From assembly GCA_028873375.1 (NCBI GenBank), contig JAGWKU010000001.1, forward strand, positions 11,763 through 75,762: DNA of 64,000 bases, read 5' to 3'. Source of the DNA: Verrucomicrobiota bacterium (GTDB lineage Bacteria; Chlamydiota; Chlamydiia; Chlamydiales; SM23-39). The first letter of the stretch is position 1. Each line of letters starts with the position of its first letter. The notes beneath the pieces were generated by a model. That model worked only from the letters and a program-made list of their open reading frames with translations. It was not told where the DNA came from and searched no databases. The translations under genes and the position numbers were made by a program. Of this stretch, positions 4,322-63,695 are shown piece after piece.

Positions 4322-4557
4322 TCAAAGTTAAAGATATCTGAGGCAGTTGCAAAACTCATTTGACCGTTAAAACCGCCCTTTTGAGGCCATTTGCGTCCAT
4401 TCTCCTCAGTCGGCCCGCTTGGGCTGACCTCGTCAAATGGACCGTGGTGGCTTTGCCACCACTCGCAAATGACCTCAAAATCATCGATTTTCCCGGGCAA
4501 AGCAGTTTTGCAACTGCCTCGTCTTTGTAGATTATCCGCTCTCTCGAGCATTTTCAA
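4318..4557 (-). CDS. Possible small protein (77-79 aa) translationally coupled to the MFS/acyltransferase gene
   Basis: Its TGA stop overlaps the TTG start of the downstream gene (TTGA). Once recC is started at 4607, no real gene overlaps this ORF. I recognise no homology. Confidence 0.3.
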   Translation of the reverse strand: MKMLERADNLQRRGSCKTALPGKIDDFEVICEWWQSHHGPFDEVSPSGPTEENGRKWPQKGGFNGQMSFATASDIFNFD

Positions 4558-4606
4558 TAGGAATGATTTGCTTTCGCATGCTAAATTTTGCCATACTCCA
4601 TCTTTT

Positions 4607-7564
4607 ATGTCGGAGCAGATTCTTCTCTTTAGTCATTCTCTCGATCAATTGGTTGATGAGCTAGCAAATCAGCTGGCCCTCACTACTCTTTTTTCGTCTC
4701 CTTTGATCATCATTCCCCACCTTTCCATGAAAGAATGGCTACAAATCGAGCTTGCTAAGCGGGCAAAAAATCGAGGAGTAGCTGCGCTCCATTTTGCTAC
4801 TTGGCAGCAAGGAATTCAACGGTTGACAGAGCCATTGCCAACTCCAAGTCGGGCTGAATTATTTGCGGCGATTTGGATAGCCTTAAAAGAGGAGCCGCCT
4901 ATTCAGTGCCAACCTTTTTTAGCGACTCAGCGAAAAATGCTCGATTTTGCAAATCGCTTGGCCGCTGAATTTTGGGAAGGCAGCTTGTATGGGTTCGTAC
5001 AAGAAGAGAGTTGGCAGAAACTTTTTTTTGATAAAATTTTCAAAATCCATCACTGGCTACCTCTTTATCTTGCAATAGAACAAGCGCCAATCGATGATTC
5101 AACACCTCTTTTTCTCTTTGGAATCGATTTTTTGCCTTCCGCCGTGCATCAATTTTTTTGGAAGCATCCAACCTTGAATGTCTTTCGCTTTTCTCCCTGC
5201 GCTATGTTTTGGGAAGACATTCGCTCAGTTTCTGAACAGAAATCCATCTTGCGCCAATGGAAACGGAAAAGGGTCTCATTGAACCGTTTAGAGTCGCTCG
5301 AGGGATTGCTTCGCGAAGGTCAACCACTTCTTGCTAACTGGGGTTTTATCGGTCGCAAAATGTTGGGACAACCTATCGAAGAAGAGGTTCAAGTTTTTGA
5401 AAATTATGAACTTAGAGACAAATGTAAAGCGGCTTTACATTTAATTCAGGAAGATTTTTTGTTACTGCAAACGAGAGAATCAACCCCTTTAGATGACTCG
5501 ATTCAATTGATCCAGGCGGGAGCTTCTAAACTGCGCGAAATCGAACTGCTTCGGGATGAGGTGATCCGTTTAGCGGCTAACGGCTTCTCTTTCTCTGAAG
5601 TGCGGGTTTATGCGCCTGACATCGATGTATATGCCCCTCTGATCCAATTTGTGTTTAGTGATCCTATTCAGTCCATTCCGTTTCGCATTGCGGGACTTAA
5701 CCTCTCTTGTCAAAGCCCCTTTTATCAAGCGCTCACTCGTTTATTTGACTGTGTAACCGGTCGATGGAGTGCGAAGGATTTGCTCGTCCTTTTCGAGAAT
5801 CCCTCTTTTGCTTGTAAAGCCAGTTGGAAAGAGGAGGATTTAGAGCAATTGCGCTCGTGGGTTGAGTATGCGCATGTTCGCTGGGGAATCGATGGGGCTC
5901 ATAGAAATGAGATTGGAGCTGAAAATGTCGAAGCTCCCACTTCTTCTTTAGGTAGTTGGGAAGAAGGTTTTGATCGCTTGATCGATGGATGGCTCTTTTT
6001 GCGTCCGGAGCGCGAGGATTTTATCCAGTGGAGCAATGCTGATTTATTTCAACATTTCTGCAATGTATTCCATGGATTGCGGAGCACGCTGGCTCCTTGG
6101 AAAAGAGAGCGCTCATTGAAAGAGTGGGCCGATGAAATTTCTGAATTAGCGACTGCCTACCTTGTTTTAAACGAGGACTTGGAATCAGATACAGCGGCGC
6201 ACAAGGATTTCTTTCGTTTTTTAGAAACTCTGCGTCATGCCCAAGAGGCCTTTCCTAATCAGACATTTCCCTTTTCGTGGGTTCGAACTTTGTTCTCTCC
6301 TTCTACTCTAGGTACCCAGGGAAGATCTCTTTTGCATGGCGTTTCATTTGCCTCTCTTGAACCAGGTGCTGTTTTGCCTGCTCGGGCTCTATTTTTGATT
6401 GGTTTAGATGAAGAGAGCTTTCCTCGAGCACCCTCTTTTCTCCGCTCTACAGAGGCGCCGCAGCAAAATCAATGGGATCGCTATCTATTTTTAGAAGCAG
6501 TATTCGCAGCCAAAGAGCGGCTGATTTTTAGTTATTGCCACCGCTCTAAAGAGGATGGTAAAGCCGTCAGTCCTTCTCTTCTGATTCAAGAGCTTTATAG
6601 CTATTTGAATGCCTCTTTACCGGAGGTAGCTCCTCCCGCGTCTTCGATTGATCCGCGTTGCTTTACAGGAAATGGCGCCTCTCTTTCTGATTACCACGTC
6701 GCTCAAGCAGCTCTCTCACCAACTCCTCATGCTCTGTTTTCTAATATGGAGAAAGTGCCAGACGAGGCGATGCCTTCTCATGCAACGCTGACTCTCGGAG
6801 AGCTCAATCGTTTCATGAGGCATCCGTGGCAGAATTATTTACAGGAAATCGTCGGCCTAGAATTCAAAGAAGAGAGCGAATCAGAATGGAAAGACTTTGA
6901 ATTTTCTCCTCTTTTTCAACATCGCTTCCTTCAAAAAGCTTTGCAAGGTCAACCAATAGAAACAGGATTTCCATTGGGGCTTTTGGGAGAAGAGGCAAAA
7001 CGTTCGATGGAAGAGAAGGTTCGTGAATACAAAGCTCGCTTGCGAGAATGGAATATCTCTTCGATGAGCGAAAGAAAGGGAAAGCTAGTTTTGAAATGGG
7101 AAACATCCACCATTCGCTTGATTGGATCTGCTTCATTGGCAGTACCAGATGGCTTGCTTTACATTGGCGACGATTCGATTCGAGGAATGCTTCGGAGGTG
7201 GCCTGAACTTCTTTTTAGTTTAGCATACAGTGAGACCCGTCGTATTTATTGTATGCGGAGCGGTCGAGTGAGAGAAGTAATAGAACCGCTTTCTTCCCTC
7301 CAGGCGATTGTAGAACTCTATTATCGATGCCGTTTTTTACCTCTTTTTTTACATCCCGATTGGGCCGATGAATTGCTACGCAAAGGAGTCTCTCCCGATC
7401 GAGACTGTGACGATCCTCTTCTCGAATGGACTTTGGAAAGAAGCTCCTCGTTTGATTTGCAAAAAGAACAAATTACTTGGAGAGAAACGTTAGAAAAGAC
7501 CTTCACCTCTTTGATTTCTTTATTCCCCACTCGAAAATCGAGAGGTGCTCATGCAGAAGTTTGA
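4607..7564 (+). CDS. recC: Exodeoxyribonuclease V gamma subunit RecC
   Basis: The length (~985 aa), the N-terminus MSEQILLFSHSLDQLVDELANQL (compare E. coli MLRVYHSNRLDVL) and the position directly upstream of recB-recD support the call. I start at ATG 4607, not the ORF-track start at 4391. Confidence 0.85.
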   Translation: MSEQILLFSHSLDQLVDELANQLALTTLFSSPLIIIPHLSMKEWLQIELAKRAKNRGVAALHFATWQQGIQRLTEPLPTPSRAELFAAIWIALKEEPPIQCQPFLATQRKMLDFANRLAAEFWEGSLYGFVQEESWQKLFFDKIFKIHHWLPLYLAIEQAPIDDSTPLFLFGIDFLPSAVHQFFWKHPTLNVFRFSPCAMFWEDIRSVSEQKSILRQWKRKRVSLNRLESLEGLLREGQPLLANWGFIGRKMLGQPIEEEVQVFENYELRDKCKAALHLIQEDFLLLQTRESTPLDDSIQLIQAGASKLREIELLRDEVIRLAANGFSFSEVRVYAPDIDVYAPLIQFVFSDPIQSIPFRIAGLNLSCQSPFYQALTRLFDCVTGRWSAKDLLVLFENPSFACKASWKEEDLEQLRSWVEYAHVRWGIDGAHRNEIGAENVEAPTSSLGSWEEGFDRLIDGWLFLRPEREDFIQWSNADLFQHFCNVFHGLRSTLAPWKRERSLKEWADEISELATAYLVLNEDLESDTAAHKDFFRFLETLRHAQEAFPNQTFPFSWVRTLFSPSTLGTQGRSLLHGVSFASLEPGAVLPARALFLIGLDEESFPRAPSFLRSTEAPQQNQWDRYLFLEAVFAAKERLIFSYCHRSKEDGKAVSPSLLIQELYSYLNASLPEVAPPASSIDPRCFTGNGASLSDYHVAQAALSPTPHALFSNMEKVPDEAMPSHATLTLGELNRFMRHPWQNYLQEIVGLEFKEESESEWKDFEFSPLFQHRFLQKALQGQPIETGFPLGLLGEEAKRSMEEKVREYKARLREWNISSMSERKGKLVLKWETSTIRLIGSASLAVPDGLLYIGDDSIRGMLRRWPELLFSLAYSETRRIYCMRSGRVREVIEPLSSLQAIVELYYRCRFLPLFLHPDWADELLRKGVSPDRDCDDPLLEWTLERSSSFDLQKEQITWRETLEKTFTSLISLFPTRKSRGAHAEV
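5420..5442. repeat. Palindromic repeat AAATGTAAAGC-g-GCTTTACATTT, copy inside recC
   Basis: Perfect 11-bp arms with one centre nucleotide. It is read in frame as KCKAALHL. Confidence 0.95.
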
Positions 7565-10500
7565 TTGCCTTGCAGCCTCGACTCCTGTACTCGGCCCCCA
7601 TTTTCTCGAAGCTTCTGCAGGCACAGGAAAAACCTTTGCGGTCGAACACATCGTTGCGCGGCTTCTGCTGCATGAATCTCCCATGGAACTGGAACAGATT
7701 CTCGTTGTTACGTTTACTCGGGCGGCGGCTCGCGAACTCAAATTGAGGATTCGTTCTAATATAGAGCGGATTGCTCGCGGCCAACTGGTCCCATGGGAAT
7801 ATTTAGCCGCATGCAAGGACCCCTCGTCTGTTCGACAGCGGATGAGCGATGCTTTGGCCGCGTTTGATCGGTGTCAGATCTATACCATTCACGGTTTTTG
7901 CTCTCGGATGCTTCGCGAGTTTTCCTTTGAGGCTGGGATTGGCTTTACATGGAAGGAATCTTTTTCCTCTCCTCGGCTTTTAGCGGCTTTACAAGACTTT
8001 TTTGAGATGAAGCTGTCTAAGGAAGTCGTCAGTCCCGAGCAACTGGGCATTGTTGTTCGATGGGCAGGATCGGTGGAAGAATTGGGTCGCAAGCTCAAAA
8101 AAGCGGCCAAGATAGTGCCTGCAAAATTTTTTCGCGATCGAGAGGAAGAGTTTGCTGCTCTGTTGCAAAGCCGATCTCCTGAAGAATTGATTTCTCTAGC
8201 TCAAGAATTCGAAGCAGTAAAGTCGCTGTACAAAGCTGAAGTGAAAGGAGACTTTAAAGGACAGATAGAAGTTCTGAGCTCGTTCGATTGGGAAGCTGCA
8301 TTTCGAGAGTTGATTCGGCATAAAGGGACTCTTTTTCTCTATCTTGCCCCAGAGAATCGAAAAGTAAATGCAAAGGGATCTATGCCTCATCCTTTTTTCG
8401 ATTGGGGCCGGAAAACCTTATTGCCTCTGATCGAATCGGCGGCAGATCCTCAAGAAATTTTCCAACAGCTTCTTGCGGTTTGGAAACCCATTGAATTTCG
8501 GATTGCACAGGAAGAGGGGATTTTAAATCCCGATCAATTGCTGAGCACTATGGGTTCTGCTATCCAGCAAGAAACTTTTCGAAACAGTGTGCGAGGAAAA
8601 TATCGAGCCGTTCTCATCGATGAATTCCAAGACACCGACCCGATCCAGTGGGATATTTTCCAGGCCTTGTTTCTTCACCAAGTAGAGGCTCTTTATTTGA
8701 TCGGCGATCCCAAACAATCCATTTACCGGTTCCGACAAGCTGATCTCTATACCTATTTAAAAGCAAAAGAGACGATTGCTCCTCATTGTCACTTCCACCT
8801 AGATACCAATTTTCGTTCTTCCAAAGAATTGATTGGGGCTTTGAATCTCCTCTTTGATCGGGAGTGGCTTAAGTTGCCAAAAGAAGGGCGCACACTCCCC
8901 TATCTTCCTGTGCGGGCAGGTTTAGACCTTTCAACTGACTTTAAAGATGGGAAGGGAGCGATCCATTGCCTCTTGTTTCAAGAAGAAATTTCGGAGCTTT
9001 TCCCCTATCTTGTGCAGGAAATTAGAAATCTGAGAGACCAAGTTGTTTCGCTGAGCTCGTTTGCCGTATTGGTCAAAGATCGATACCAAGCAGCCGCTGT
9101 GCAGCAGGCGCTTGCCATTGCTGGAATTTCGAGTATGGCTAAGAGCCAAGAACCTCTTTCTGAAACGCTCGCTTTTGAAGCGATGGAAGAGTTGTTTGAA
9201 GCTCTTCGGGAGCCAAGACATTTAGGGAAAGCGAAGGTTGTTTTAGCAGGCCCTTTTGGAAGATATGCTGCAGAAGAACTACAACGGGTGGAAGAATCTC
9301 CTTTCGTAGAACTGCGGGCTATTCTGGAAGAGAAAGGATGGACAGCGGCTTGCCAAGCCTTTTTAAAAATGCGCTCCAAAGGGAAGACAGTCCAAGAAAA
9401 CATGGCTTTACAAGGCCGCTCCTTCTATGCCGATTGCCACCAAGTCTTTGAAGTTCTTTTAGATTGGGAGCGAAGAGAGGGCTTTTCCTTTGAGGGATTG
9501 GGTCGATTCTTTGATTCTCTTCATCGGATGGATCCTGAAGAAGCGCCTTGCCAGAGGAAAGATTCTGATGCGGAGGCCGTCCAAATCATGACAATGCATG
9601 TGAGCAAGGGGCTGGAATTTGATGTGGTATTTGCATTGGGCTTGGGAACGAGAACTCCAGAGTGTGATGTAGAGGCAGAGGCAGAAAAATTAAGACAGTT
9701 ATATGTAGCGACTACTAGAGCTAAACGGCGGCTTTACATCCCGATCCCTACGAGCTTGAAAAAAGCAGAAATGGGGACTCATGCCCCCATTGAGCTCTTT
9801 TGTGAAACATTGGGATCTTGGAAGGAAGAGCTTCGCCGTTTATCAGGAGAGGCGAGTTTGTCGATCGAAGAATTGCCCTCTCTGGTTGCCGTAACTCCTC
9901 CCTTTCATTTTACTCCTTCTCTTGTTCCTCCTGCCTTCCAGTTACCCTCGGTATCACCTTCCTATCTTCTCTCTTTCACGGCGCTGGCAAAAGAAACTTC
10001 TCTCAAACCTCTGGCTTCTATCGCTGACCCACAAGGAAATTATACAATTCATAATTTACCGAGAGGTCCAGAAACAGGAGTCGTTCTCCACGCGCTTTTT
10101 GAATGGATCTATCAAGAAAAGCAAGCTTGGAAATCTCCTGAACGAATCCAAGAAATCGTAGAGCAAGATCTTCCGGCTCTCTTTTCTCCGTGGAAAAAAG
10201 CGATTCTCCAAATGATCGAAGAGACGCTTACTTTCCGTTTGCCTATGGGGTTTTGCTTGCGCGATGTAAAGCCAGGAAATGTCCTCGTTGAAACAGAGTT
10301 TGTCTTTCAATCGCAGAAGAATTTTCTGACGGGATTCATTGATCTTTTGTTTATTCATGAGGAGAAGGTATATTTCGTTGATTGGAAGACGAATTGGCTT
10401 GGCGAAGATGCAAGCCATTATTCAGAGCCAGAGTTAAAAGCAGCCATTGCTGCGCATCAGTATGACTTGCAAGCTCGCATTTATAGAGAAGCATTAGAAC

Positions 10501-10589
10501 GAGTAGGGATCGAAACACCTTCCGCTATTTATTTCTTTGTTCGAGGCCCACAGGCAATCTGTTTTCACCCTGAGGATAGACATGGATGA
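7551..10589 (+). CDS. recB: Exodeoxyribonuclease V beta subunit RecB (helicase-nuclease)
   Basis: UvrD-type motif I is AGTGKTF, with VLIDEFQDTD and motif VI YVATTRAKRRLYI. The C-terminal nuclease motif is GFIDLLF...YFVDWKTN. ATG 7551 overlaps the recC stop; GTG 7545 is an alternative start. Confidence 0.9.
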   Translation: MQKFDCLAASTPVLGPHFLEASAGTGKTFAVEHIVARLLLHESPMELEQILVVTFTRAAARELKLRIRSNIERIARGQLVPWEYLAACKDPSSVRQRMSDALAAFDRCQIYTIHGFCSRMLREFSFEAGIGFTWKESFSSPRLLAALQDFFEMKLSKEVVSPEQLGIVVRWAGSVEELGRKLKKAAKIVPAKFFRDREEEFAALLQSRSPEELISLAQEFEAVKSLYKAEVKGDFKGQIEVLSSFDWEAAFRELIRHKGTLFLYLAPENRKVNAKGSMPHPFFDWGRKTLLPLIESAADPQEIFQQLLAVWKPIEFRIAQEEGILNPDQLLSTMGSAIQQETFRNSVRGKYRAVLIDEFQDTDPIQWDIFQALFLHQVEALYLIGDPKQSIYRFRQADLYTYLKAKETIAPHCHFHLDTNFRSSKELIGALNLLFDREWLKLPKEGRTLPYLPVRAGLDLSTDFKDGKGAIHCLLFQEEISELFPYLVQEIRNLRDQVVSLSSFAVLVKDRYQAAAVQQALAIAGISSMAKSQEPLSETLAFEAMEELFEALREPRHLGKAKVVLAGPFGRYAAEELQRVEESPFVELRAILEEKGWTAACQAFLKMRSKGKTVQENMALQGRSFYADCHQVFEVLLDWERREGFSFEGLGRFFDSLHRMDPEEAPCQRKDSDAEAVQIMTMHVSKGLEFDVVFALGLGTRTPECDVEAEAEKLRQLYVATTRAKRRLYIPIPTSLKKAEMGTHAPIELFCETLGSWKEELRRLSGEASLSIEELPSLVAVTPPFHFTPSLVPPAFQLPSVSPSYLLSFTALAKETSLKPLASIADPQGNYTIHNLPRGPETGVVLHALFEWIYQEKQAWKSPERIQEIVEQDLPALFSPWKKAILQMIEETLTFRLPMGFCLRDVKPGNVLVETEFVFQSQKNFLTGFIDLLFIHEEKVYFVDWKTNWLGEDASHYSEPELKAAIAAHQYDLQARIYREALERVGIETPSAIYFFVRGPQAICFHPEDRHG

Positions 10590-12123
10590 ACTTTCTTTAG
10601 AAAAGCGCCTTGTCAATCGAATTCTACGAGAGAAAAAATCTCCGCAGCTTGAAGAGTTTCTTCTCGGATTTTTAGAAAGTGTGAGGGAAGGACATCTCTG
10701 CTCCAAAATAGACGATCCTTCCCTTCTTCCCTCAGATGTTGTGTCAATAGGAGATGAGCAAACTCCTTTTCCAGAAAAGCCCCTTGTTTTGCAGGAAAAT
10801 CGCCTCTATTTACAGCGCAATTGGGCACTTGAATCTCTGATTGTTCACAAAGCGGCGGAACTCTCTTCACGAACTCCCGTTGTCTTAGATCGGCACCGCT
10901 TTGAGCAGGCGTTGACATCGATGCAAGAAACGCTTCAGCCGGGCCAAAAAAAAGCCATTGAAAGAGCCTATGACCAAATGTTTTCTCTCTTTACTGGAGG
11001 TCCGGGAACTGGCAAAACTTACACGGCAGGTTGTTTTATCCGCCTTCTAGCGGCTTGCCATCCGACTCCTCCGTTTAAAGTAGTGATTGCGGCGCCAACA
11101 GGAAAAGCGGCAGCGCACTTAGAGAGCTCATTAAAAGCTCAGAGTTCTTTGTATTTTCATTGCGAATCGATGACGCTTCATCGTTTACTAAAGTTATATC
11201 CCGGCCAGCATCGCTTTTTTTCAGATAGATTAATTGATGCTGATCTAGTGGTGGTAGATGAAGCTTCAATGATCGATGTTTCTCTTATGCTTCATTTATT
11301 AAATTCAATCGGCCCCGAAACGCGTCTCCTATTATTAGGAGATCCCAATCAACTCCCGCCCGTCGAAGCTGGGAGTCTTTTTGCAGAGATGGCAGAATTG
11401 CTTGGTCACCCTCTTGAACGATCTATGCGAACAGCTGATCCATTTTTGCTTAGCTTGGCAGAAGCGATTCAAAAAGGAGATATCCAGCCAATTCGAGAAG
11501 CGATCACTCCTTTCCCAAATTCGCTCATCGAAGAACTTTGCAGGCGGCTCCATTCGCCGATTCATTCTGTTTCGCCTGATCCTATGGGTTGCTTGCAAGA
11601 GCAAAAGCGGTTTCGTATTTTGTGTGCTTTGCGCCAAGGGCCTTTAGGAGTAGATGCTTTAAACCGAGAATTGATCCATCGATTTGAAAGGCAACTGGGG
11701 CCAGCAGATTGGCTATCGATACCTATTTTGATTACCCAAAATGATCCGCGGAGACAGCTTTACAATGGGACGATGGGAGTATTGATTCAGCAAGCAAGAG
11801 GAACTCAAGGAACTGCTTATTTAATGACGGGAGACCAAGTCCGTGCCTTTCCTGTCAATGCTCTACCTCATTTTGAGGCAGCTTTTTGTCTATCTGTGCA
11901 CAAGAGCCAGGGAAGCGAATTCGAAGAGGTAATGATTCTTTTTCCACCAGGGAGTGAGCGATTCGGTAAAGAAGCTCTTTACACGGCGGTCACGCGGGCA
12001 AAGAGAAAGGCGATGTTGATGGGGGATGCGGCTTTATTGGAAGAGGCTTTAAAAATGCCTTTGCGAAAACGCTCTGGTTTTACAGAGCGTTTCCTTGCGT
12101 TTAAGCAGAAACTCTGTTGCTAA
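10582..12123 (+). CDS. recD: Exodeoxyribonuclease V alpha subunit RecD
   Basis: Walker A is GGPGTGKTYT, with VVVDEASMID and a C-terminal SVHKSQGSEF...YTAVTRAK. ATG 10582 overlaps the recB stop by 8 nt. Confidence 0.9.
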   Translation: MDELSLEKRLVNRILREKKSPQLEEFLLGFLESVREGHLCSKIDDPSLLPSDVVSIGDEQTPFPEKPLVLQENRLYLQRNWALESLIVHKAAELSSRTPVVLDRHRFEQALTSMQETLQPGQKKAIERAYDQMFSLFTGGPGTGKTYTAGCFIRLLAACHPTPPFKVVIAAPTGKAAAHLESSLKAQSSLYFHCESMTLHRLLKLYPGQHRFFSDRLIDADLVVVDEASMIDVSLMLHLLNSIGPETRLLLLGDPNQLPPVEAGSLFAEMAELLGHPLERSMRTADPFLLSLAEAIQKGDIQPIREAITPFPNSLIEELCRRLHSPIHSVSPDPMGCLQEQKRFRILCALRQGPLGVDALNRELIHRFERQLGPADWLSIPILITQNDPRRQLYNGTMGVLIQQARGTQGTAYLMTGDQVRAFPVNALPHFEAAFCLSVHKSQGSEFEEVMILFPPGSERFGKEALYTAVTRAKRKAMLMGDAALLEEALKMPLRKRSGFTERFLAFKQKLCC

Positions 12124-13847: not shown

Positions 13848-13881
13848 CAAGCTTGCAAATAATCTAAGAGCTTATATGATA

Positions 13882-15640: not shown

Positions 15641-15663
15641 AAATGTAAAGCCGCTTTACATTT
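15641..15663. repeat. Palindromic repeat AAATGTAAAGC-c-GCTTTACATTT, first of a tandem pair after rpoD
   Basis: Perfect 11-bp arms. It starts 18 nt after the rpoD stop. Confidence 0.95.
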
Positions 15664-16146: not shown

Positions 16147-17340
16147 ATGATTTTTTTTGAACATGTAATAGAAGGCCCTCCCGATGCCGTCTTTGGGTTG
16201 ATGGGAACATTTCGAGCTGATCAAAGACCCGAGAAAATCAATTTAATGGTCGGAATCTACAAAGATGAGCATCTCAAAAGCGAAGTGATGCCGGTAGTGA
16301 AAAAGGCGAAGGAAAAAGTGCTCGCCTCTGATCAAATGGCCGATTATTTGCCTTTTGACGGGGCTCCCCAGTTCTTTGAGTCCTTGGGTAAATTGGTCTT
16401 TAGAGAATGGGGGAACGTCGAAGATCGGGTATATGCCACACAGGCCATTGGCGGTACAGGGGCCCTTCGACTGGGGGCTGACTTTTTGGCTCAGGAAGTT
16501 GGAAAGAGGGTTTGGATCCCGCAGCCGACGTGGGCTAATCATCGGGGAATCTTTGAAAGGGCTGGCTTTACAGTAGAGACATTGCCCTATTATAGCTCGG
16601 CCCAGCATGGGATTGATAAGAGTGCTTATTTCAAACATCTTCGCTCGCTTCCTCCAAAAAGCGTCGTTCTCTTCCATGGAACGTGTCACAATCCGACTGG
16701 ATGTGATCCTACGCTGGAAGAATGGAAAGAAATTTCTCACATCTGCAAGGAGCGTTCTCTCCTTCCTTTCTTCGATTTTGCTTACCAGGGATTTGGAGAT
16801 GGGGTTGAGGAGGATGCAGGGCCGGTGCGTCTTTTTCTCGATGAAGGACATGAGTTTTTAGTGGCTTATTCGTGTTCGAAGAACTTTAGTTTGTATTGTC
16901 AGAGGGTTGGAGCTCTCTTTGTCGTCTGCAAAGAGGCGGCTGTAAAGCCAAGAGTAGGAAGTCAAATCAAGAGAATTATCCGAACGACGTATTCCAATCC
17001 TCCTGCTCATGGGGCCAAAATTGTAGCGGAAGTTTTAAACGACCGAGCGTTGAAGGTTGAGTGGTTGAAAGAATTAGATCAGATGCGCCACCGTATTTCG
17101 CAAGCGCGCGCTTTGTTGGTCAAAAAATTAGTCGCTAAAGCAAAGAAAATCGACTTTCGATTTGTACAGCAGCACAAAGGAATGTTTTCTTATCTCGATC
17201 TAAGTCCCAAGCAAGTAAAAGAATTGATGGAGAAGCATGGGATTTACATGTTGGATAGCGGCCGGATCAATGTGGCAGGATTGACTTCTCAAAATATCGA
17301 TCGTGTAGTAGACCAGGTGATTGCGGTGAGTGAAGCGTGA
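16147..17340 (+). CDS. aspC: Aspartate/aromatic aminotransferase (class I)
   Basis: It carries the PLP-lysine motif SCSKNFSLYCQRVGAL, the GTCHNPTG block and the conserved YSNPPAHGA. Confidence 0.9.
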   Translation: MIFFEHVIEGPPDAVFGLMGTFRADQRPEKINLMVGIYKDEHLKSEVMPVVKKAKEKVLASDQMADYLPFDGAPQFFESLGKLVFREWGNVEDRVYATQAIGGTGALRLGADFLAQEVGKRVWIPQPTWANHRGIFERAGFTVETLPYYSSAQHGIDKSAYFKHLRSLPPKSVVLFHGTCHNPTGCDPTLEEWKEISHICKERSLLPFFDFAYQGFGDGVEEDAGPVRLFLDEGHEFLVAYSCSKNFSLYCQRVGALFVVCKEAAVKPRVGSQIKRIIRTTYSNPPAHGAKIVAEVLNDRALKVEWLKELDQMRHRISQARALLVKKLVAKAKKIDFRFVQQHKGMFSYLDLSPKQVKELMEKHGIYMLDSGRINVAGLTSQNIDRVVDQVIAVSEA

Positions 17341-18401
17341 AACGCTCGTTTTTCTTGTTGCCTGTCTTTCTCTTTTTGCTTCTCAGCTTGCCTGAGGGCG
17401 CCTCTAATCGTCTCCGATCGCGTACGGTGGCTTTACTGTCTCCTTTTTGGAAATTAGGCGATGCGGCTCGAAAGCCTCTCGTTCCGGTGGCCCCTGTTTC
17501 TTCTCAGGAAGTGAATAGCTTGCAGTTGGAAAATCATCAATTGCGAAGCCAGCTCGATCTAGTTTACGAATGGCTGAGTTCAGAAAAGCGGTTGCGCGAT
17601 CAAATCGATGTGTTTCGCGAATTGAAGGGAGAGCCCAAGGAATTCATTGAGCGACGGACGAAGGAGATGAAAGCTCTCCTTCAAAAACAAGCGATGGCGG
17701 CCTTTGGACGGATCATTTATCGCGATCCGAATTCATGGAGCAGCAGCTGCTGGATTGATGTGGGAGAAGAGGATAATGAGGCGCTCGGTCAGCCTATTGT
17801 GGCCAAGAATAGCCCTGTTGTCGCAGGCGCTTCTTTGGTCGGCATTGTGGAGTATGTAGGCAAACGACATTCTCGAGTGAGACTCATCACCGATTCAGGA
17901 TTGAAAATTGCAGTACGAGCTGTGAGAGGGTCGATTCAAGAGCGAGAAATGGCCTCATTGGTACATGTCTTGCTTGATCGATTGCAGAGATACTCTCAAG
18001 GGAAAGAACAGGTCGCGGTCGATGGATTGGCGCAGTTGGAAAAAAAATTCCCGGTTCGGTGGAGCGATTCTTATTTAGCAAAGGGAGAGGTTTTTGGCAG
18101 TAGCGCTACCTATTTTCGCTCTCTCAAGTCGACATTGAAGGGAGTTGGATTCAATTGTGATGTGAGTGACGCAGAAGGGCCTGCTCGTGATTTGCGAAGT
18201 GGAATTTTAAAAAAGGGAGATTTTCTCCTCACTTCCGGCCTCGATGGAGTTTTTCCTCCTGGGCTGAAAGTGGGTGTTGTCAGCTCTGTAAAGCCGCTGC
18301 GTGAAGGGGCCTTTGCCTATGAATTAGAGGCTGTTCCCTCGGCGGAGAATTTGTCTGATCTTACTTCTATCTACGTCCTCCCCCCCCTTAGCTTGGAGTG
18401 A
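17337..18401 (+). CDS. mreC: Rod-shape determining protein MreC
   Basis: An N-terminal TM and coiled-coil segment is followed by VVAGASLVGIVEYVGKRHSRVRLITDSGLKIAV and LLTSGLDGVFPPGLKVG, both typical of MreC. The GTG start overlaps the aspC stop (GTGA). Confidence 0.8.
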   Translation: MKRSFFLLPVFLFLLLSLPEGASNRLRSRTVALLSPFWKLGDAARKPLVPVAPVSSQEVNSLQLENHQLRSQLDLVYEWLSSEKRLRDQIDVFRELKGEPKEFIERRTKEMKALLQKQAMAAFGRIIYRDPNSWSSSCWIDVGEEDNEALGQPIVAKNSPVVAGASLVGIVEYVGKRHSRVRLITDSGLKIAVRAVRGSIQEREMASLVHVLLDRLQRYSQGKEQVAVDGLAQLEKKFPVRWSDSYLAKGEVFGSSATYFRSLKSTLKGVGFNCDVSDAEGPARDLRSGILKKGDFLLTSGLDGVFPPGLKVGVVSSVKPLREGAFAYELEAVPSAENLSDLTSIYVLPPLSLE

Positions 18402-19376
18402 GCCAAAGGCTTTCTCGTAGAGTTCGCGTTGAAGCGGCTCAAAATTCCTGGCTTTACATAGATTTTTCTCAATTTGAAAGAGGAGATTGCGGTCGGGATG
18501 CACCCTTTGTCCGCAGGAGTGGAGCCGGGCTAGGGGTAGGGAGGAGCGAGCAAGGAGGAACATTGGCTTTTGGAAGGCAAGAACGTCATACCCAACAGAG
18601 GAATAATCGCCTAAGTAGGCGTCAATTCGTTCAAGAAGCGGATAGACAGGAGGAAATTCATGGATGAGGAACACGTTTTCCAAAGAGGCAGTGAGTCGGC
18701 AAAATAGAGCGGGATCTCTTTGTGAAAGGAGAGGGTGGATTTTGATGAGGACATTCCAGTCGCTTTTTTGATTGAGTTGCTGGAAGGTCTCAAAAAAAGA
18801 GGTCGATTGATCGGCATCTTGCCAAGTGGGAGCGTAGAGAAGAGTGGGACGTTTGGGATCGAGGAAGGAAAAGACCTCTTTTTGGGCTGCTGCTCGTAAT
18901 CTCTCTCGATGGGTTTGAAAGTAAAGCCAACGATGATTGCCGATCATCCAGTAGTCAGGAATTTGGATATTTAACTCTTCGAGCATTTTTTTCAGCAAAT
19001 TGCCGTACAGAAGGACGCCATCTTGAGTTGCATAGGGAGCTAAAAGTGGGGTGGCATAGCCTTTATCTGATTGTCCATGAGGGCAAAAGATGAGTTCCAT
19101 TTTTTTGTGAAAGAGGGTCCGAAAGAGCTCTTTGAGGTGAGGCGCCCAATATTTGCATTCGATGAGCAGGTCGAATCGGTCGGCAATTTCTTTGAGATGA
19201 AATTCGAGATGAGTCCACCGCTCGGTAGACACTTCAGGATAATATTTTGCTGCGAGAAGTTCATTTTCTTCTTCGGTGACAATAAGAGGGATGTTGAGGA
19301 TGGAAGCGAGAGGTGCGATGTGATCGAGGAGATGGATGTCTGGTCCGGTATTGAATGCACAAGCTTTTAAAAGCAT
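18324..19376 (-). CDS. CDP-glycerol glycerophosphotransferase (TagB/TagF)-family protein, paralog 2
   Basis: Family blocks are LLYAPTWQD, LIKIHPLL and YLGDYSSVGYDVLAFQKPMF. The ATG overlaps the upstream paralog's stop by 10 nt. The 3' end overlaps the convergent mreC by 78 nt. Confidence 0.7.
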   Translation of the reverse strand: MLLKACAFNTGPDIHLLDHIAPLASILNIPLIVTEEENELLAAKYYPEVSTERWTHLEFHLKEIADRFDLLIECKYWAPHLKELFRTLFHKKMELIFCPHGQSDKGYATPLLAPYATQDGVLLYGNLLKKMLEELNIQIPDYWMIGNHRWLYFQTHRERLRAAAQKEVFSFLDPKRPTLLYAPTWQDADQSTSFFETFQQLNQKSDWNVLIKIHPLLSQRDPALFCRLTASLENVFLIHEFPPVYPLLERIDAYLGDYSSVGYDVLAFQKPMFLLARSSLPLARLHSCGQRVHPDRNLLFQIEKNLCKARNFEPLQRELYEKAFGSLQAKGGEDVDRSKIRQILRRGNSL

Positions 19377-23851: not shown

Positions 23852-25063
23852 TTGTTTAATATGATCATGCACTTACGAGACTGTCTTTTTTTGGGCCTTG
23901 AACGGATCTCATGGCTGGGAAGTTTGGTGCTAATCCTCAGCAACTTACCGGCCATTGGTCTATATGTTCAGCTATTGTCTGTCGACCACCCATGGATTGG
24001 GGGATATGAGCATGTAAAGCCAATACCCCCTTCTGTTGATATTCGTCTTCAGCTTGCTGAAGCTCCTGTTGTTGTAGGCGATGCACGCGAGCAGATTTCT
24101 TTTTCTCTCGATCCTCCTCGTCCAGCCTCTTCTTTAAAAGGTTCAGGCCTTCTCGTCCGGTTAAACGAAAGTAAGCAGTCAAAGCGGGTGGAAGTGCCTG
24201 TCCGGCTACCGATCGAGTTCAATAAGACGGGGGTGCTCCAATTTTCTTCGGGAGATGGCCGGTTTTGGCTCGATTTGCGAGTCGGTGATGCAAGGTGTGC
24301 TGAAGCAGCATTGGTCTATGAGACTTTAACCGGGGATACAACCGAGCAACAAATTTGGCCAGTTGTTGCTCAGGAGACGCCCATTCAATCAGCCGAAGAA
24401 TTTCCTGAATCTAGCCCTTTTCGAGAGCTGGGAGAAGCCCGCTGGTGGGGAACCGACCTGTTTTTAGAAGAATATAAAGGCGGAGAGGCGATCCATCGGT
24501 TGGAAATGGGGTCAGGAGGAACATTTCTCGATGTTTCTATGAATGCTTGGCTCGTATTCAAAGACCACCAATGGCAATCCATTGCTCAGATAGAAGAAGC
24601 TCAAGGCCTGCCGATTGCTCGCATCAAAAAGGCAACCTCTCATGGATTAGAGCTAGAAGGATGGGAGGCATCTTCGCACGTCTGTTTGCGCCTTCCGCCG
24701 ACCTTATCAACGCCATTGAAAATGCGGAGCGAGGATTTCTTTGCGCAGTTACGGGTCCGTTCCGAGAAGCAGATTAGCTGCATGATGGATAAACAATGTT
24801 TGATTTTAAAAGTCGGAGACTGGGTTTTGAAGACAGACCAACGATGGCGGATTTTACGAAAAGAAGAAGAAAAAAATGCTTATGTAAAAGGCGAGTTAAC
24901 AGGCGATTTGTTTGTCTTCGATTGCATTGAAACTAAAGGCGCTGTCAAAAATGTTTGCGGACACTATTTTCCCGCCGTGCGCACCCAAAAGGCTACAATG
25001 GAATGTCCTGTGCAACGGCGCCAAGGGCCTGGCGTTCATAAAGGGCGAGGGAAGAACCGATGA
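23852..25063 (+). CDS. Hypothetical protein with N-terminal membrane anchor, first gene of the T2SS operon (possible GspC-like role)
   Basis: Its stop overlaps the gspD ATG (ATGA). It has an N-terminal hydrophobic helix WLGSLVLILSNLPAIGLYV. The start is uncertain (TTG 23852, or the ATGs a few codons in). The function is inferred only from position. Confidence 0.5.
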   Translation: MFNMIMHLRDCLFLGLERISWLGSLVLILSNLPAIGLYVQLLSVDHPWIGGYEHVKPIPPSVDIRLQLAEAPVVVGDAREQISFSLDPPRPASSLKGSGLLVRLNESKQSKRVEVPVRLPIEFNKTGVLQFSSGDGRFWLDLRVGDARCAEAALVYETLTGDTTEQQIWPVVAQETPIQSAEEFPESSPFRELGEARWWGTDLFLEEYKGGEAIHRLEMGSGGTFLDVSMNAWLVFKDHQWQSIAQIEEAQGLPIARIKKATSHGLELEGWEASSHVCLRLPPTLSTPLKMRSEDFFAQLRVRSEKQISCMMDKQCLILKVGDWVLKTDQRWRILRKEEEKNAYVKGELTGDLFVFDCIETKGAVKNVCGHYFPAVRTQKATMECPVQRRQGPGVHKGRGKNR

Positions 25064-47308: not shown

Positions 47309-47945
47309 TTTTAAATACAACGCTCAGTGAAGCACTTTTATTTAAGCACGGAAACTGTAGCTCAGGCAACCGCTTTTTTAAAAACTCTTCATTTTTTTCG
47401 TTTTTCGTCTCGAGAATTTCTAAACTGGCGACATGCCCTGCTGTATCGATGGTTAATCGAACTTTCACTTCCCCATATTCTGGGAGTTCTAAAGCATTTT
47501 GCAAAAAGAGAGCGATCGAATCAAAGTCAGTTTCTTTTTCTTCTTCATGAGGCGTGTTGAATTGAATGGTAGGAACCGCGATCGCTGATTTGGTGGAAGG
47601 GACGGGAGTGGATAGTGATTCGAGATTTTTAGTGATCTCTTGCAGTAAAGCATCAGAGGGAGGAGAAACAACAGGCGCGACTTTTTTGGGAACCGCTTTT
47701 GGAATTGCCTTGGTTGGTTGAGAAGTTGTCTTTTTAGGGGCTGGCTTTACAAGAGAAGAGGATTGGATTGCAACCGGTTGAGGAGAAGGGGCGCGGAAGG
47801 TGCGGACGGCAATAGGGCGACGGCGTGGGAGAGGGCGATCGATCCAATAATTTCCGAGCATGAGGATGACGAGAAGGGCATGGGCGCAAAGGACACCCAG
47901 TGTAATTTGTTTTCCGCGAGTAAGTGATCGAAAGGAAAAGCTCAT
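47298..47945 (-). CDS. TolA/TonB-like energy-transducing protein
   Basis: An N-terminal TM and a Pro/Lys/Ala-rich spacer (PAPKKTTSQPTKAIPKAVPKKVAPVVSPP) precede a small C-terminal domain. It lies between tolR and tolB. Confidence 0.65.
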   Translation of the reverse strand: MSFSFRSLTRGKQITLGVLCAHALLVILMLGNYWIDRPLPRRRPIAVRTFRAPSPQPVAIQSSSLVKPAPKKTTSQPTKAIPKAVPKKVAPVVSPPSDALLQEITKNLESLSTPVPSTKSAIAVPTIQFNTPHEEEKETDFDSIALFLQNALELPEYGEVKVRLTIDTAGHVASLEILETKNEKNEEFLKKRLPELQFPCLNKSASLSVVFKNAL

Positions 47946-49071: not shown

Positions 49072-49165
49072 ATTCCATCAAAAGGAATAGTCTAAATGGA
49101 AGCAAAAAGTCAAGGTGGCTTTCACTTTTGTGTTGCATAAGTTTAGAAGTCAGCGATTTATGTGT

Positions 49166-49186
49166 AATGTAAAGCTGCTTTACATT
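49166..49186. repeat. Palindromic repeat AATGTAAAGC-t-GCTTTACATT in the tolQ/tatD divergent region
   Basis: Perfect 10-bp arms. It ends 10 nt before the tatD ATG. Confidence 0.95.
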
Positions 49187-49196
49187 TGAGAAAAAT

Positions 49197-53642: not shown

Positions 53643-55016
53643 ATGACAAAGAAGATTCCTTTTTTCTCGTTGATCATCCTCATCATTGCGGCGATTGACA
53701 ACATCCGAAATCTCCCAGCGACAGCGCTGTTTGGCTCTTCACTGGTTTTCTTTTTTGTTCTGTCGGCGATCGTATTTTTGATTCCAATCTCGTTGATGTC
53801 AGCGGAACTTTCGGCGGCATTTCCGGAAAAGGGGGGAGTCTATCAATGGATCAACCGGGCGTTCGGTAAAAAATGGGCCATGGCGGCGATCTGGCTCCAG
53901 TGGATCAATACGATGGTATGGTATCCGACCATTCTCTCTTTTATTGCTGGAACGTTGTCTTATTTGATCGACCCGGCGCTGGCACAAAATAAGGCTTATC
54001 TTTTGTCGGTTATCCTCGTTATTTTCTGGGGATTGACATGGGTCAATTTAAAAGGAATCCACGTCTCTACGATGATCAATAACGTTTGCGCGACGATTGG
54101 TACTGTTGTTCCCATGATTTTCTTGATCGCACTAGGGGCTATGTGGTTCTTCAGTGGGAAGCCGATCCAAGTTTCTTTTACGCGCGATGCGATGATTCCT
54201 TCTTTTACTAATTTGACGAGCTGGAGTTCCTTAATTGCAATCATGGCTTCTTTTTTAGGAATGGAGCTGTCGGGCGTCCATGTGAATGACATCTACGAAC
54301 CGCAAAAGAATTTTCCAAAGGCTGTGTTCTTGGCGAGCTTGTTTATCTTCCTGACTATGCTATTTGGCTCTCTCTCGATTGCTTTTGTCGTGCCGACAAA
54401 TGAGATCAATCTGGTGTCAGGAGTGATGCAAGTATTTACGAGTTTCTTTTATGCATTTGGATTGCAGGCATTGATTCCGTTGTTGACGTTGATGATTGTG
54501 ATTGGTTCGACAGGGACGATGATCAACTGGCTCATTTCACCCGCTAAAGGGTTATTGCATGCGGCTGAATTTGGATTCCTACCTCCTTTTTTCAGTCGGA
54601 AAAACAAAGCAGGGGTAGCTTCGAATATCTTGATTGCTCAAGCGGTGGTTGTAAGTCTCGTCTGTTTGGTTTTCTTATTGGAGCCGACAATCAATGCTTT
54701 CTACTGGTTTTTGACGGCCTTGAGTACAGAGCTTTACATGATCATGTATGTCATGATCTTTTGCGCAGGGGTGCGATTGCATTACAAATATATTGATCGG
54801 CCTTCGACCTTCAAGATCCCAGGCAATGGATGGGGCATGTGGGCTACGGCTCTTCTGGGGTTGGTCGGATGCCTTCTGACCATTATCATCAGCTTTTTGC
54901 CGCCCGATACGATCATTACGACTCCAGGTCGTTATCTATCGATGATTTGCATCGGCAATTTAGTTTCGATTAGCCCGCTCTTTCTCTTCTATTGGTATCA
55001 ACGAAAAACTTCATAA
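53643..55016 (+). CDS. APC-superfamily amino-acid permease (glutamate/GABA-antiporter-like)
   Basis: It has about twelve TM helices. The N-terminal block is AIDNIRNLPATALFGSSLVFFFVLSAIVFLIPISLMSAELSAAFPEKGGVYQW. ATG 53643 is used instead of the ORF-track TTG. Confidence 0.75.
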   Translation: MTKKIPFFSLIILIIAAIDNIRNLPATALFGSSLVFFFVLSAIVFLIPISLMSAELSAAFPEKGGVYQWINRAFGKKWAMAAIWLQWINTMVWYPTILSFIAGTLSYLIDPALAQNKAYLLSVILVIFWGLTWVNLKGIHVSTMINNVCATIGTVVPMIFLIALGAMWFFSGKPIQVSFTRDAMIPSFTNLTSWSSLIAIMASFLGMELSGVHVNDIYEPQKNFPKAVFLASLFIFLTMLFGSLSIAFVVPTNEINLVSGVMQVFTSFFYAFGLQALIPLLTLMIVIGSTGTMINWLISPAKGLLHAAEFGFLPPFFSRKNKAGVASNILIAQAVVVSLVCLVFLLEPTINAFYWFLTALSTELYMIMYVMIFCAGVRLHYKYIDRPSTFKIPGNGWGMWATALLGLVGCLLTIIISFLPPDTIITTPGRYLSMICIGNLVSISPLFLFYWYQRKTS

Positions 55017-59269: not shown

Positions 59270-61096
59270 CTAACGGTTTCGCTTTTCCAGCGCAACCATC
59301 AAGATGGAGATGTCAGAGGGAGAAAGACCTGAAATGCGAGAAGCAGATCCAAGATTTTCGGGTGTGAAGCGGCCTAGTTTTTGTTTTGCTTCTGCTCGTA
59401 GCCCGACGATGGAGGAGTAATCGAATTCTTTGGGAATGCGGATCACATCGAGATGCTCTAATTTGGCTACTTCTTTGTGTTGTCGTTGGATATAGCCGGC
59501 ATACTTGAGTTCGAGTTCGATTTGGGTGTTGAGATCGGAGCCAAAGTCGGCGATGAGAGCTGGATAAGCGGCTCGTGCTTTTTCGTAATCCCAGTCGGGG
59601 CGAGAGATCAATTGAGCCATGCTGATCCCCTTTCCTTCGATCGTTTTGTAGACGGTGGCAAGGCGAACGATTTCTGTCTCAATGGTCTTTTGCTTTTCGA
59701 TCACTCGGTCGTATTGAGCGCGGGTGATGAGGCCGAGTTCATAGGCCATGGGGCGAAGGCGCAAATCAGCGTTGTCTTGTCGCAGCAAGAGGCGATGTTC
59801 GGCGCGGCTGGTGAACATTCGGTAGGGTTCAGTCAGGTCGAAGCGGATCAGGTCGTCGATCATGACGCCGATGTAGCTATCACTGCGGCGCATGATGAAA
59901 GGAGATTTTCCAAGGGCTTTACAGGCGGCGTTGATGCCTGCGATCATCCCCTGCCCGGCTGCTTCTTCATAGCCGGTGGTCCCATTGACTTGTCCAGAGA
60001 GGAAAAGTCCTTCGACGAGTTTGGTTTCCAGGGTGGGAGATATTTGATCGCTCTTCACGTAGTCGTATTCAATCGCATAGGCAGAGCGGAGAATCTCGGC
60101 ATTTTCGAGACCTGTTACGCTGTGAATGAGATCGAGTTGGACGTCGAAAGGAAGGGATGTCGAGATTCCGTTGACATAGACCTCTTCGGTCATCAGGCCT
60201 TCAGGTTCGAGGAAGATTTGGTGGCGATCTTTGTCGGCAAAGCGGACTACTTTGTCTTCGATGGAGGGGCAATAGCGGGGACCGACTCCTTGAATTACGC
60301 CTGCATAGAGCGGCGAACGGTGGAGGTTGGCTTCGATGATCTGCTTGGTTTCAGGGGTGGTATAGGTGATGTGGCAGGCGATTTGCTGCATGCGAGGTTC
60401 TGGTTCATCGTAGGAAAAGCTGACCCACTCATCACTCAATTGCTCTTCGCATTTAGAGAAATCGATGCTGCGTCGGTGGATACGGGGTGGGGTCCCGGTC
60501 TTAAGGCGCCCGAGCCGAAAGCCGAGACTCTCGAGGCAAGGTGATAACCCGGTCGCTGCTTTATCTCCTGCGCGGCCCCCAGAGAAATTGGTCATCCCTA
60601 TGTGGATGAGTCCCTTCATAAAGGTGCCTGAGGAGAGGACTACGGTTTTAGCGCGGTAGGCAATCCCTTCCTGGGTCCCTACCCCCATGATCTGCCCCCC
60701 TTCCACAAGGAGGGACTCGGTGGTGCCTTGCTTGATGTGGAGGTAGGGGGTTTTTTCAAGCCGGAGCTTCATTTCCAGGGCATAGGCTGCCTTATCTGCC
60801 TGAGAACGAGGGGATCTCACCGCAGGCCCTTTGGAGGCATTGAGCATCCGGAACTGGATGCTCCGGCGGTCAGCCACCTTTCCCATGAGTCCGCCGAGGG
60901 CATCGATCTCACGGACCATATGCCCCTTGGCGGTGCCTCCGATCGACGGGTTGCAGCTCATCTTCCCGATGGTATCGAGATTCATAGTGAGCAAGAGGGT
61001 CTTACACCCCATCCGCGCAGCAGCGTGAGCTGCCTCGCAGCCGGCATGGCCAGCCCCTATCACTATGACATCAAAGATTTCCGGATAATTCCACAT
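59270..61096 (-). CDS. mnmG: tRNA uridine-5-carboxymethylaminomethyl modification enzyme MnmG (GidA)
   Basis: The N-terminus is FDVIVIGAGHAGCEAA...MSCNPSIGGTAKGHMVREIDALGG. The length is typical at 608 aa. Confidence 0.97.
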   Translation of the reverse strand: MWNYPEIFDVIVIGAGHAGCEAAHAAARMGCKTLLLTMNLDTIGKMSCNPSIGGTAKGHMVREIDALGGLMGKVADRRSIQFRMLNASKGPAVRSPRSQADKAAYALEMKLRLEKTPYLHIKQGTTESLLVEGGQIMGVGTQEGIAYRAKTVVLSSGTFMKGLIHIGMTNFSGGRAGDKAATGLSPCLESLGFRLGRLKTGTPPRIHRRSIDFSKCEEQLSDEWVSFSYDEPEPRMQQIACHITYTTPETKQIIEANLHRSPLYAGVIQGVGPRYCPSIEDKVVRFADKDRHQIFLEPEGLMTEEVYVNGISTSLPFDVQLDLIHSVTGLENAEILRSAYAIEYDYVKSDQISPTLETKLVEGLFLSGQVNGTTGYEEAAGQGMIAGINAACKALGKSPFIMRRSDSYIGVMIDDLIRFDLTEPYRMFTSRAEHRLLLRQDNADLRLRPMAYELGLITRAQYDRVIEKQKTIETEIVRLATVYKTIEGKGISMAQLISRPDWDYEKARAAYPALIADFGSDLNTQIELELKYAGYIQRQHKEVAKLEHLDVIRIPKEFDYSSIVGLRAEAKQKLGRFTPENLGSASRISGLSPSDISILMVALEKRNR

Positions 61097-63579: not shown

Positions 63580-63589
63580 GATATTTTCT

Positions 63590-63610
63590 AATGTAAAGCC
63601 GCTTTACATT
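63590..63610. repeat. Palindromic repeat AATGTAAAGC-c-GCTTTACATT after the small ORF pair
   Basis: Perfect 10-bp arms. It starts 11 nt after the stop at 63579. Confidence 0.95.
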
Positions 63611-63695
63611 TGGGAAGCGCTGCTTTTCTTTGCCTAAAAAACCCCTTTTGGTTAAAAGAGGTTTGGGATAGCCTATACCCCTGAGATTGACTGTT

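Follow-up and report, generated by a model that had tools for sequence, protein, structure and literature searches.

Why should the coding sequence of a conserved repair enzyme contain a perfect 23-bp palindrome? The question is raised by a 64-kb stretch of contig JAGWKU010000001.1 (the window), whose positions 5420–5442 read AAATGTAAAGCGGCTTTACATTT (= AAATGTAAAGC-G-GCTTTACATTT), with two 11-nt arms that are exact reverse complements on either side of a single central G. The original prediction placed this palindrome in frame inside recC, where it would be read as KCKAALHL, and sequence, frame and translation all bear this out: it begins at codon position 1 of the open reading frame (ORF) 4391..7564(+), and its codons AAA TGT AAA GCG GCT TTA CAT TTA specify KCKAALHL within ...LRDKCKAALHLIQEDF... 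of the protein. We find that this copy arose through point substitutions, without insertion, and consider it very likely to be a copy of a word that is selected at the DNA level. The best explanation overall, to which we assign a probability of about 0.6, is that the recC palindrome is one copy of a Chlamydiota-wide DNA recognition word that most resembles DNA uptake sequences. The unit of this word would be TGTAAAGCC(A/G) and its common form two inverted, overlapping units, ATGTAAAGC-N-GCTTTACAT. This 19-bp core is found in the window eight times without a mismatch, where shuffles predict 0.02 copies.

The ORF encodes RecC. Its product matches the E. coli RecC chain (PDB 1W36_C) with E=2.4e-34, and the 985-aa protein is a 100% match to P0001 (here and below, ‘P’ labels denote proteins and ‘L’ labels genome or contig loci, in the numbering of this analysis). 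The true start of the gene is probably the ATG at 4607. The palindrome and the three genes of the recCBD cluster are as follows.

4607..7564, plus strand: recC, 985 aa from the ATG at 4607 (mechanical ORF from TTG 4391), with Pfam Exonuc_V_gamma and RecC_C
5420..5442: the recC palindrome, core 5422–5440, coding for K272–L279 of RecC (numbering from ATG 4607)
7545..10589, plus strand: recB, with Pfam UvrD-helicase and PDDEXK_1; five isolated half-sites, no palindrome
10537..12123, plus strand: recD, with Pfam AAA_30 and UvrD_C_2; one isolated half-site

The recC palindrome arose by substitution

Two origins had been proposed for the palindrome: either a palindromic unit had entered a tolerant loop as an insertion whose length was a multiple of three, or selection on the DNA motif overrides codon choice. 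The first is contradicted for both recC and recB. The palindrome segment contains no gap or indel in an alignment of 32 RecC orthologs, and the lineage-specific insertion of about 7–8 residues that such an alignment was expected to reveal is found in none of them. The columns that hold KCKAALHL in the window read QCKAALQG and QCKAALQE in the nearest pair of orthologs, which are 61% and 59% identical, SGETVLEL, EPSTLLTQ, DSGTLLNG and similar segments in orthologs of 30–45% identity, and TPDNLLHN, again without a gap, in E. coli RecC, where the helix start xLLH is present too. RecB behaves likewise: the palindrome in RecB of L014 and L061 (KCKAALH) aligns without a gap to EEFAALL of the window RecB in a five-sequence alignment. 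Neither alignment shows residues added relative to orthologs that lack the palindrome, and because both are gapless we reject insertion.

The tolerant loop survives in part. In the AlphaFold model of the window RecC (mean predicted local distance difference test score, pLDDT, 84), residues 266–275 are coil and residues 276–286 helix (pLDDT ~84). K272–A275 form the end of the coil, so that the first four residues of the peptide do lie in a loop, but A276–L279 make up the first turn of the conserved helix 276–286. The 3' arm (GCT TTA CAT = A-L-H) encodes the beginning of this helix, where x-L-L-H was already required, whereas the variable loop ahead of it is encoded by the 5' arm (TGT AAA GCG = C-K-A). 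The palindrome is located where RecC could tolerate it.

These alignments bear directly on the idea that a small selfish element inserted itself in frame into recC, in the manner of Rickettsia palindromic elements (RPEs) or of a repeat of the repetitive extragenic palindromic (REP) or miniature inverted-repeat transposable element type. The palindrome is indeed a dispersed, near-identical repeat that is found within genes too, and one GT4 gene (in L097) contains 11 of them within 1.2 kb, alongside a local tandem duplication. But RecC and RecB are equal in length to their orthologs without the palindrome; the flanks past ~23 bp are unrelated between copies, with no target duplications; and among the window ORFs scanned there is no transposase (of the Y1 family or otherwise) and no REP-associated tyrosine transposase (RAYT) gene. 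The identical word is moreover conserved phylum-wide and at orthologous sites, and the half-site is enriched alone as well. We regard a selfish insertion as very improbable.

The second proposal, DNA-level selection overriding codon choice, is supported by the sister species, by synonymous shuffles, by an ortholog pair that differs in frame and by repeated gain of the word in RecC. The recC genes of the sister species L117 and L119 read cAATGTAAAGCgGCTTTACAa and cAATGTAAAGCtGCTTTACAa, giving the pattern cAATGTAAAGC(g/t)GCTTTACAa; they retain 18 of the 19 core bases, including every synonymous site, and the sole change is at the free centre base. Over the rest of recC, codons are identical at 47% of shared residues, and the probability that all four motif codons match is ~0.03. 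When synonymous codons were permuted within genes and the 8-mer TGTAAAGC was counted, the observed numbers far exceeded those of the shuffles in recC (5 versus 1.11), recB (5 versus 0.27), gspD (3 versus 0.08) and overall (17 versus 1.75).

Between L033 (5541) and L037 (2962), two orthologs with 37% identity, the 21-mer is the same and so is its place, yet the frame is not: it reads NVKRLYI in one and KCKAALH in the other, with compensating indels on both sides. In each of three lineages RecC itself has acquired the word at a position of its own: besides the window copy, a palindrome lies at residue ~746 of the RecC P0030/L241, from a genome of 27% GC, and at residue ~465 of P0016/L242, in the other reading frame. 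Intergenic palindrome sites are likewise kept, between metagenome-assembled genomes (MAGs) whose flanking proteins are 41–64% identical. Conservation of the recC copy as DNA goes back beyond the divergence of the window lineage from the two sister species, and the peptide KCKAALHL is a side effect of the DNA word.

Might CKAALH simply happen to be palindrome-coded, as a chance outcome of protein constraint and codon usage? ALH does match the conserved helix start (LLH in E. coli RecC), and synonymous shuffles of recC still give ~1.1 8-mers. The copy-number statistics of the exact 19-mers nevertheless refute this reading, and the word is found in both frames and in non-coding DNA, occupies a single site, though in two different frames, in a pair of orthologs, and exceeds the synonymous shuffles by a large factor; we give chance next to no credence. 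A peptide conserved in orthologs that lack the palindrome would have pointed to convergence, and none was found: the orthologs that bear the peptide have the palindrome, and the others have other peptides. The remark that such an element is unusual for a conserved repair enzyme proved misleading, as recCBD is the densest spot for the word in three genomes.

Palindromes and half-sites in the window

The eight cores start at 5422, 15643, 15681, 25601, 33634, 40041, 49167 and 63591, and no copy with 1–4 mismatches exists in the window. Palindromes here are all-or-none, with eight perfect copies, none with 1–4 mismatches and 19 unrelated half-sites. This perfect-or-absent pattern may reflect strong selection or the templated correction of quasi-palindromes. 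Two of the eight are genic, in recC and in the secretin gene. Besides the recC copy the palindromes are the following.

15641..15663: first of a tandem pair, 18 nt past the rpoD stop codon
15679..15701: second of the tandem pair, 38 bp from the first, centre to centre
25599..25621: within 25060..27399, a GspD-like secretin gene, and read in the other open frame as ANVKQLYILK
33632..33654: abutting the TAA stop of a MORN-repeat gene (30952..33633)
40039..40061: between convergent genes, its own TAA being the stop of the major facilitator superfamily gene 40054..41289(-)
49165..49187: between divergent tolQ-like and tatD genes, ending 9 nt before the tatD ATG at 49197
63589..63611: among short ORFs without a Pfam match

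The copy in the secretin gene is conserved in a 73%-identical ortholog (L001 3221–3239, from a MAG labelled Chlamydiae). A palindrome also lies 3' of rpoD in L093 (7066), a MAG of 32% GC. The ATG-TAA inside the palindrome makes up the final codon and stop of the neighbouring gene at many loci, host and viral alike, as at 40054–40059 in the window. When the tandem pair is counted as one, the seven palindrome loci (5431, 15670, 25610, 33643, 40050, 49176 and 63600) are separated by gaps of 6.4–14.4 kb, ~10 kb, a spacing that is unusually even within the window (coefficient of variation 0.28; P ~0.003 against random placement, post hoc). Two tRNA genes, 15968–16040(-) and 62921–63010(-), are each separated by a few hundred bases from one of the palindrome loci (at 15.6 kb and 63.6 kb).

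The half-site is over-represented in its own right. The window contains 35 copies of the 8-mer TGTAAAGC against 1.44 expected, and nine of the 10-mer TGTAAAGCCA against 0.13, and ATGTAAAGC is its most frequent 9-mer. Taking TGTAAAGCC(A/G) as the half-site, 19 of the 35 8-mers stand outside palindromes. We considered whether these are decayed palindromes and rejected the idea: across all loci, the other arm of an isolated half-site matches at chance level only, and the half-site has its own extension, CC(A/G). Isolated half-sites are enriched 2- to 30-fold in many MAGs, from 33% to 58% GC. The orientation of the word shows no bias with respect to the sign of the GC skew (52 versus 50), nor is the centre base skewed (31 to 29); a polar motif of the Chi or KOPS type was discarded on the orientation count.

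Nine of the 19 isolated half-sites fall within recCBD, which makes up 12% of the window, and L117 and L119 share this hot spot. Thirteen of the 19 lie between 5.8 and 18.5 kb (including 16563–18458). The positions 7986, 9405 and 9731 are kept in the window, L117 and L119, and 11757 at least in L119 as well; others are lineage-specific. The isolated half-sites are listed here.

5813..5822, plus strand: TGTAAAGCCA in recC, window lineage only
6660..6667, minus strand: TGTAAAGC in recC
7156..7164, minus strand: ATGTAAAGC in recC, coded LLYI
7940..7949, minus strand: TGTAAAGCCA in recB, coded GFTW; orthologs match 7/8 bases
7986..7993, minus strand: in recB, 8/8 bases conserved in L117 and L119
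9403..9412, minus strand: TGTAAAGCCA in recB, 8/8 conserved in L117 and L119
9731..9739, minus strand: in recB, coded RLYI just past helicase motif VI; 8/8 in L117 and L119
10264..10274, plus strand: ATGTAAAGCCA in recB, coded DVKP; window lineage only
11757..11764, minus strand: in recD, conserved in L119
16563..16572, minus strand: TGTAAAGCCA in an aminotransferase gene
16941..16950, plus strand: TGTAAAGCCA in an aminotransferase gene
18287..18294, plus strand: in mreC
18449..18458, minus strand: ATGTAAAGCCA, just beyond the mreC ORF (17337..18401), in the glycerophosphotransferase ORF 18324..19376(-)
24012..24022, plus strand: ATGTAAAGCCA in ORF 23852..25063
26439..26446, plus strand: in the secretin gene
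36825..36832, plus strand: in the tetratricopeptide repeat gene 36294..38972(-)
47742..47751, minus strand: TGTAAAGCCA
54731..54739, minus strand: ATGTAAAGC in an amino-acid permease gene
59916..59923, minus strand: in gidA/mnmG

Outside the window, the gene at L097 359–1585(-), annotated as a glycosyltransferase family-1 gene in a MAG of 33% GC, has its 11 8-mers within 1.2 kb in both orientations. The motifs are coded as VKP and GFT, in an apparent local tandem duplication, and the adjacent UvrB gene has three more.

Distribution in Chlamydiota and phages

In a scan of one genome per species, the core was found in more than 116 genome stretches, nearly all of them Chlamydiota MAGs, at GC contents of 27–60%. 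The core-bearing MAGs include Parachlamydiales, Simkania-like Amphrikana, Anoxychlamydiales and bins labelled Verrucomicrobia. By our estimate about nine chance matches to the core would be expected in the collection, which is consistent with the three non-chlamydial records. About half of the copies at MAG loci are in long ORFs, and these genic copies use only two stop-free frames, xCKAALH and xVK(Q/P/R/L)LY(I/M). By inspection, the genes with a palindrome encode RecB, UvrB, PolA, PutA, PdhA, SecDF, PBP2, glycogen phosphorylase and a secretin, and many genic sites are common to orthologs. Intergenic copies abut or overlap stop codons and occur between convergent genes as well. Sites are seen in recBCD, uvrB and polA and near ruvA and tatD, and many also in metabolic genes. 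Clustering of neighbouring genes yielded no cognate gene beside the palindromes, only conserved synteny (capsid, rpoD, a methyltransferase pair and ruvA).

The window itself is chlamydial in gene content, with a Chlam_OMP match (2e-15), Tol-Pal, SdhAB, TatD, GidA, DnaB and GspDEF, and the label Verrucomicrobiota is probably wrong or imprecise. The gene order also looks chlamydial (recCB beside an aminotransferase gene and mreC, tolQRB-pal, sdhAB-tatD, gspDEF), and the public record of the identical RecC is named ‘Verrucomicrobiota bacterium’. In the literature available to us, searches on the motif string, on chlamydial palindromes and on uptake sequences of chlamydiae turned up no account of the word, and a motif system spanning Chlamydiota and phages is apparently undescribed.

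The core is also present in at least 120 uncultured viral contigs (IMG/VR; L121–L240), many of them 37–41 kb long, which carry phage genes for a major head protein, tail fibre, RecT and exonuclease and, by eye, portal and terminase. Of 114 phage copies, 94 are non-coding. They typically lie 0–8 nt past a stop codon and 8–14 nt ahead of the next start codon, and most often flank the major capsid gene; usually they are squeezed between the stop codon and the next ribosome-binding site. Three viral contigs have a gene for a sigma region-4-like protein with 55% identity to the C-terminus of the window RpoD, and a palindrome stands directly 3' of the phage sigma region-4-like gene (L143 510–528), as with host rpoD. 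No copy of the core was present in the cultured phages and plasmids searched, which gave chance-level partial matches only. The 37–41 kb phage group probably infects Chlamydiota; to our knowledge, the chlamydial phages described so far are small microviruses only.

The positions of these copies bring up a role in RNA, in which bacteria and phages would both use the palindrome as a sequence-specific hairpin, located between cistrons or where transcripts end, for factor-dependent termination, for processing or to stabilise the mRNA; genic copies such as that in recC would then be incidental or attenuating. The intergenic copies 0–8 nt past stop codons and between convergent genes would suit this, as would the phage copies placed 8–14 nt before the next start and mostly flanking the major capsid gene. 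The palindrome is identical in either direction of transcription, and the rpoD tandem pair folds jointly to -33.8 kcal/mol. Single hairpins, however, are weak (-7 to -10 kcal/mol, 2–3 G-C pairs, no U tract) and were not flagged by the terminator scan; on these grounds an intrinsic (Rho-independent) terminator was rejected outright. The stem does not covary but keeps one invariant sequence, the copies at MAG loci are about half of them genic and at conserved positions, and isolated half-sites are enriched though unable to form a hairpin. Rfam covariance models run over the window at gathering score matched two tRNAs only and none of the palindromes. We judge an RNA role unlikely.

In recC the hairpin that the original prediction expected in the mRNA is indeed predicted to form, with a 10-bp A/U-rich stem and a 3-nt loop, but it is only modest (-8.7 kcal/mol; z = -2.85) and is probably incidental.

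Function of the word and comparison with known systems

The reading we prefer, a Chlamydiota-wide recognition word, would have the word read as DNA by a conserved, sequence-specific protein, and we think it probable that the word is a site bound by such a protein. The half-site would be the recognition unit, and the inverted dimer would set two units one helical turn apart. The dimer may cost least at the ends of genes, where the TAA it contains could act as the stop codon.

Among known classes the DNA uptake or self-recognition sequences, that is the DNA uptake sequence (DUS) of Neisseria and the uptake signal sequence (USS) of Pasteurellaceae, appear to fit best, because the word is over-represented on both strands, has been gained by substitution in several frames, occurs as inverted pairs after genes and keeps stable orthologous sites. 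A function in uptake specifically is a more tentative proposition. It is possible, though doubtful, that TGTAAAGCC(A/G) and its inverted dimer constitute a Chlamydiota-wide uptake or self-recognition signal that is shared with a previously unrecognised group of ~37–41 kb phages. As far as we know, such a signal would be the first outside Proteobacteria and the first in obligate intracellular bacteria. Two features of the window would be relevant only if the word is an uptake signal: the secretin/GspE/GspF/pseudopilin cluster at 25060–30964, and a CoiA-type competence protein encoded at 12972–13850(-), between rpsT and rpoD.

Several points weigh against our preferred reading. The function of the word is inferred from sequence patterns. 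The synonymous argument at the recC site is modest (P ~0.03) and based on two related orthologs, and the enrichment in recBCD, uvrB and polA is suggestive only, as metabolic genes also have several copies. The word is identical across a phylum whose genomes range from 27% to 60% GC, whereas known uptake sequences differ between genera or families. Its inverted pairs overlap with a fixed 1-nt centre, whereas DUS and USS pairs vary in spacing. Half-sites number ~0.55 per kb in the window, and seemingly fewer in most other MAG loci, against ~1 per kb for USS and DUS. Finally, the phage copies are mostly palindromic and beside capsid genes, a pattern more in keeping with an element of gene expression than with a signal for uptake.

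Nearly as likely as an uptake signal is a site for a conserved dimeric protein that organises chromosomes or acts as a roadblock. On this account a factor that organises the nucleoid, forms a roadblock or serves in segregation would bind the palindrome much as an operator is bound, and uptake would not be involved. The palindrome would resemble the Noc NBS, SlmA SBS, MatP matS, ParB parS or KorB O_B, and each site would be individually important. A 19-bp palindrome with an odd centre and half-site centres ~10 bp apart would suit a dimer, as would window copies that are perfect or absent. Individual genic and intergenic sites are conserved down to 37–64% protein identity, tandem pairs exist, and the seven window loci are evenly spaced, although that test was post hoc. 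Phylum-wide conservation is typical of sites like parS. On the other side, the CCA-extended half-sites are strongly enriched with a second arm that cannot be traced, which a dimer-only site would not predict; no cognate gene adjoins the sites among the neighbour genes examined; and parS is unmatched by inspection. A parS/ParB centromere was rejected, since the palindrome differs from TGTTNCACGTGAAACA by inspection and its eight copies are spread over 64 kb. An EUO operator was also considered and the idea dropped, as the EUO paper gives no motif.

Should the word be a recognition signal, it would offer a testable handle on DNA exchange in the intracellular chlamydiae, which are hard to manipulate, and possibly a means of improving that exchange. 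The word is a clear illustration that codons and residues alike can be set by selection on the DNA, even in conserved enzymes (RecC, RecB, UvrB, PolA, secretin). For annotation, KCKAALH, NVKxLYI and similar peptides in these proteomes are to be taken as traces of a DNA motif and not as protein motifs. The word is also a practical marker for mislabelled Chlamydiota contigs, such as the window record named Verrucomicrobiota, and it ties uncultured 37–41 kb phages to chlamydial hosts.

How does the word compare with repeats and recognition sites known elsewhere? RPEs are 100–150-bp insertions that add residues. Like them, the word is palindromic repeat DNA translated within conserved proteins of an obligate intracellular bacterium; unlike them, it involves no insertion and measures only 19–23 bp. 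REPs and bacterial interspersed mosaic elements share with it the form of a 20–40-bp palindromic repeat, often at gene 3' ends, but are extragenic, specific to a species or genus and accompany RAYT, whereas the word is genic too and phylum-wide. REPs carry GTAG or CGTC heads (PMC3733652). No such head is present here, and with two of the eight window copies and about half of the MAG-locus copies in genes, the REP/RAYT class was rejected. The Ssn targets (NTS/dRS3/SRM) are hairpin-forming repeats with hundreds of copies around genes, which are read by a sequence-specific protein that modulates transformation (PMC11893778). They are a related concept with a different motif, their consensus being ATTCCC-N8-GGGAAT with oriented flanks (PMC11893778), and were set aside. 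Nor did their link to a GIY-YIG ssnA gene appear here: Pfam scans of the window found no GIY-YIG domain.

Closer in scale is HIP1 (GCGATCGC) of cyanobacteria, an 8-bp self-complementary word linked to methyltransferases. Both are hyper-abundant short palindromes on the scale of a phylum, in coding and non-coding DNA, and both are kept at orthologous sites; the unit here, however, is a non-palindromic 9–10-mer, the palindrome is its 19–23-bp dimer, and the density is much lower. With parS, the KorB O_B and the Noc NBS the word shares perfect palindromes of similar geometry, often in genes and conserved over very large distances, and the palindrome centre AGC-S-GCT resembles the KorB operator TTTAGCSGCTAAA. 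It differs from the parS type in having far more copies and half-sites enriched alone, and no ParB or KorB gene is tied to the sites.

The uptake sequences provide the closest parallel. The word departs from DUS and USS in that its hosts are obligate intracellular bacteria with no known uptake specificity, and in being shared with phages, where it flanks capsid genes. Like DUS and USS, it is a short word over-represented tens- to hundred-fold on both strands; it lies in genes in several frames, is born by substitution, and forms inverted pairs just after genes; and its sites are stable at orthologous positions, with a possible excess in repair and recombination genes. Uptake sequences within genes raise the frequency of the peptides that they code (Findlay & Redfield 2009, PMC2817400).

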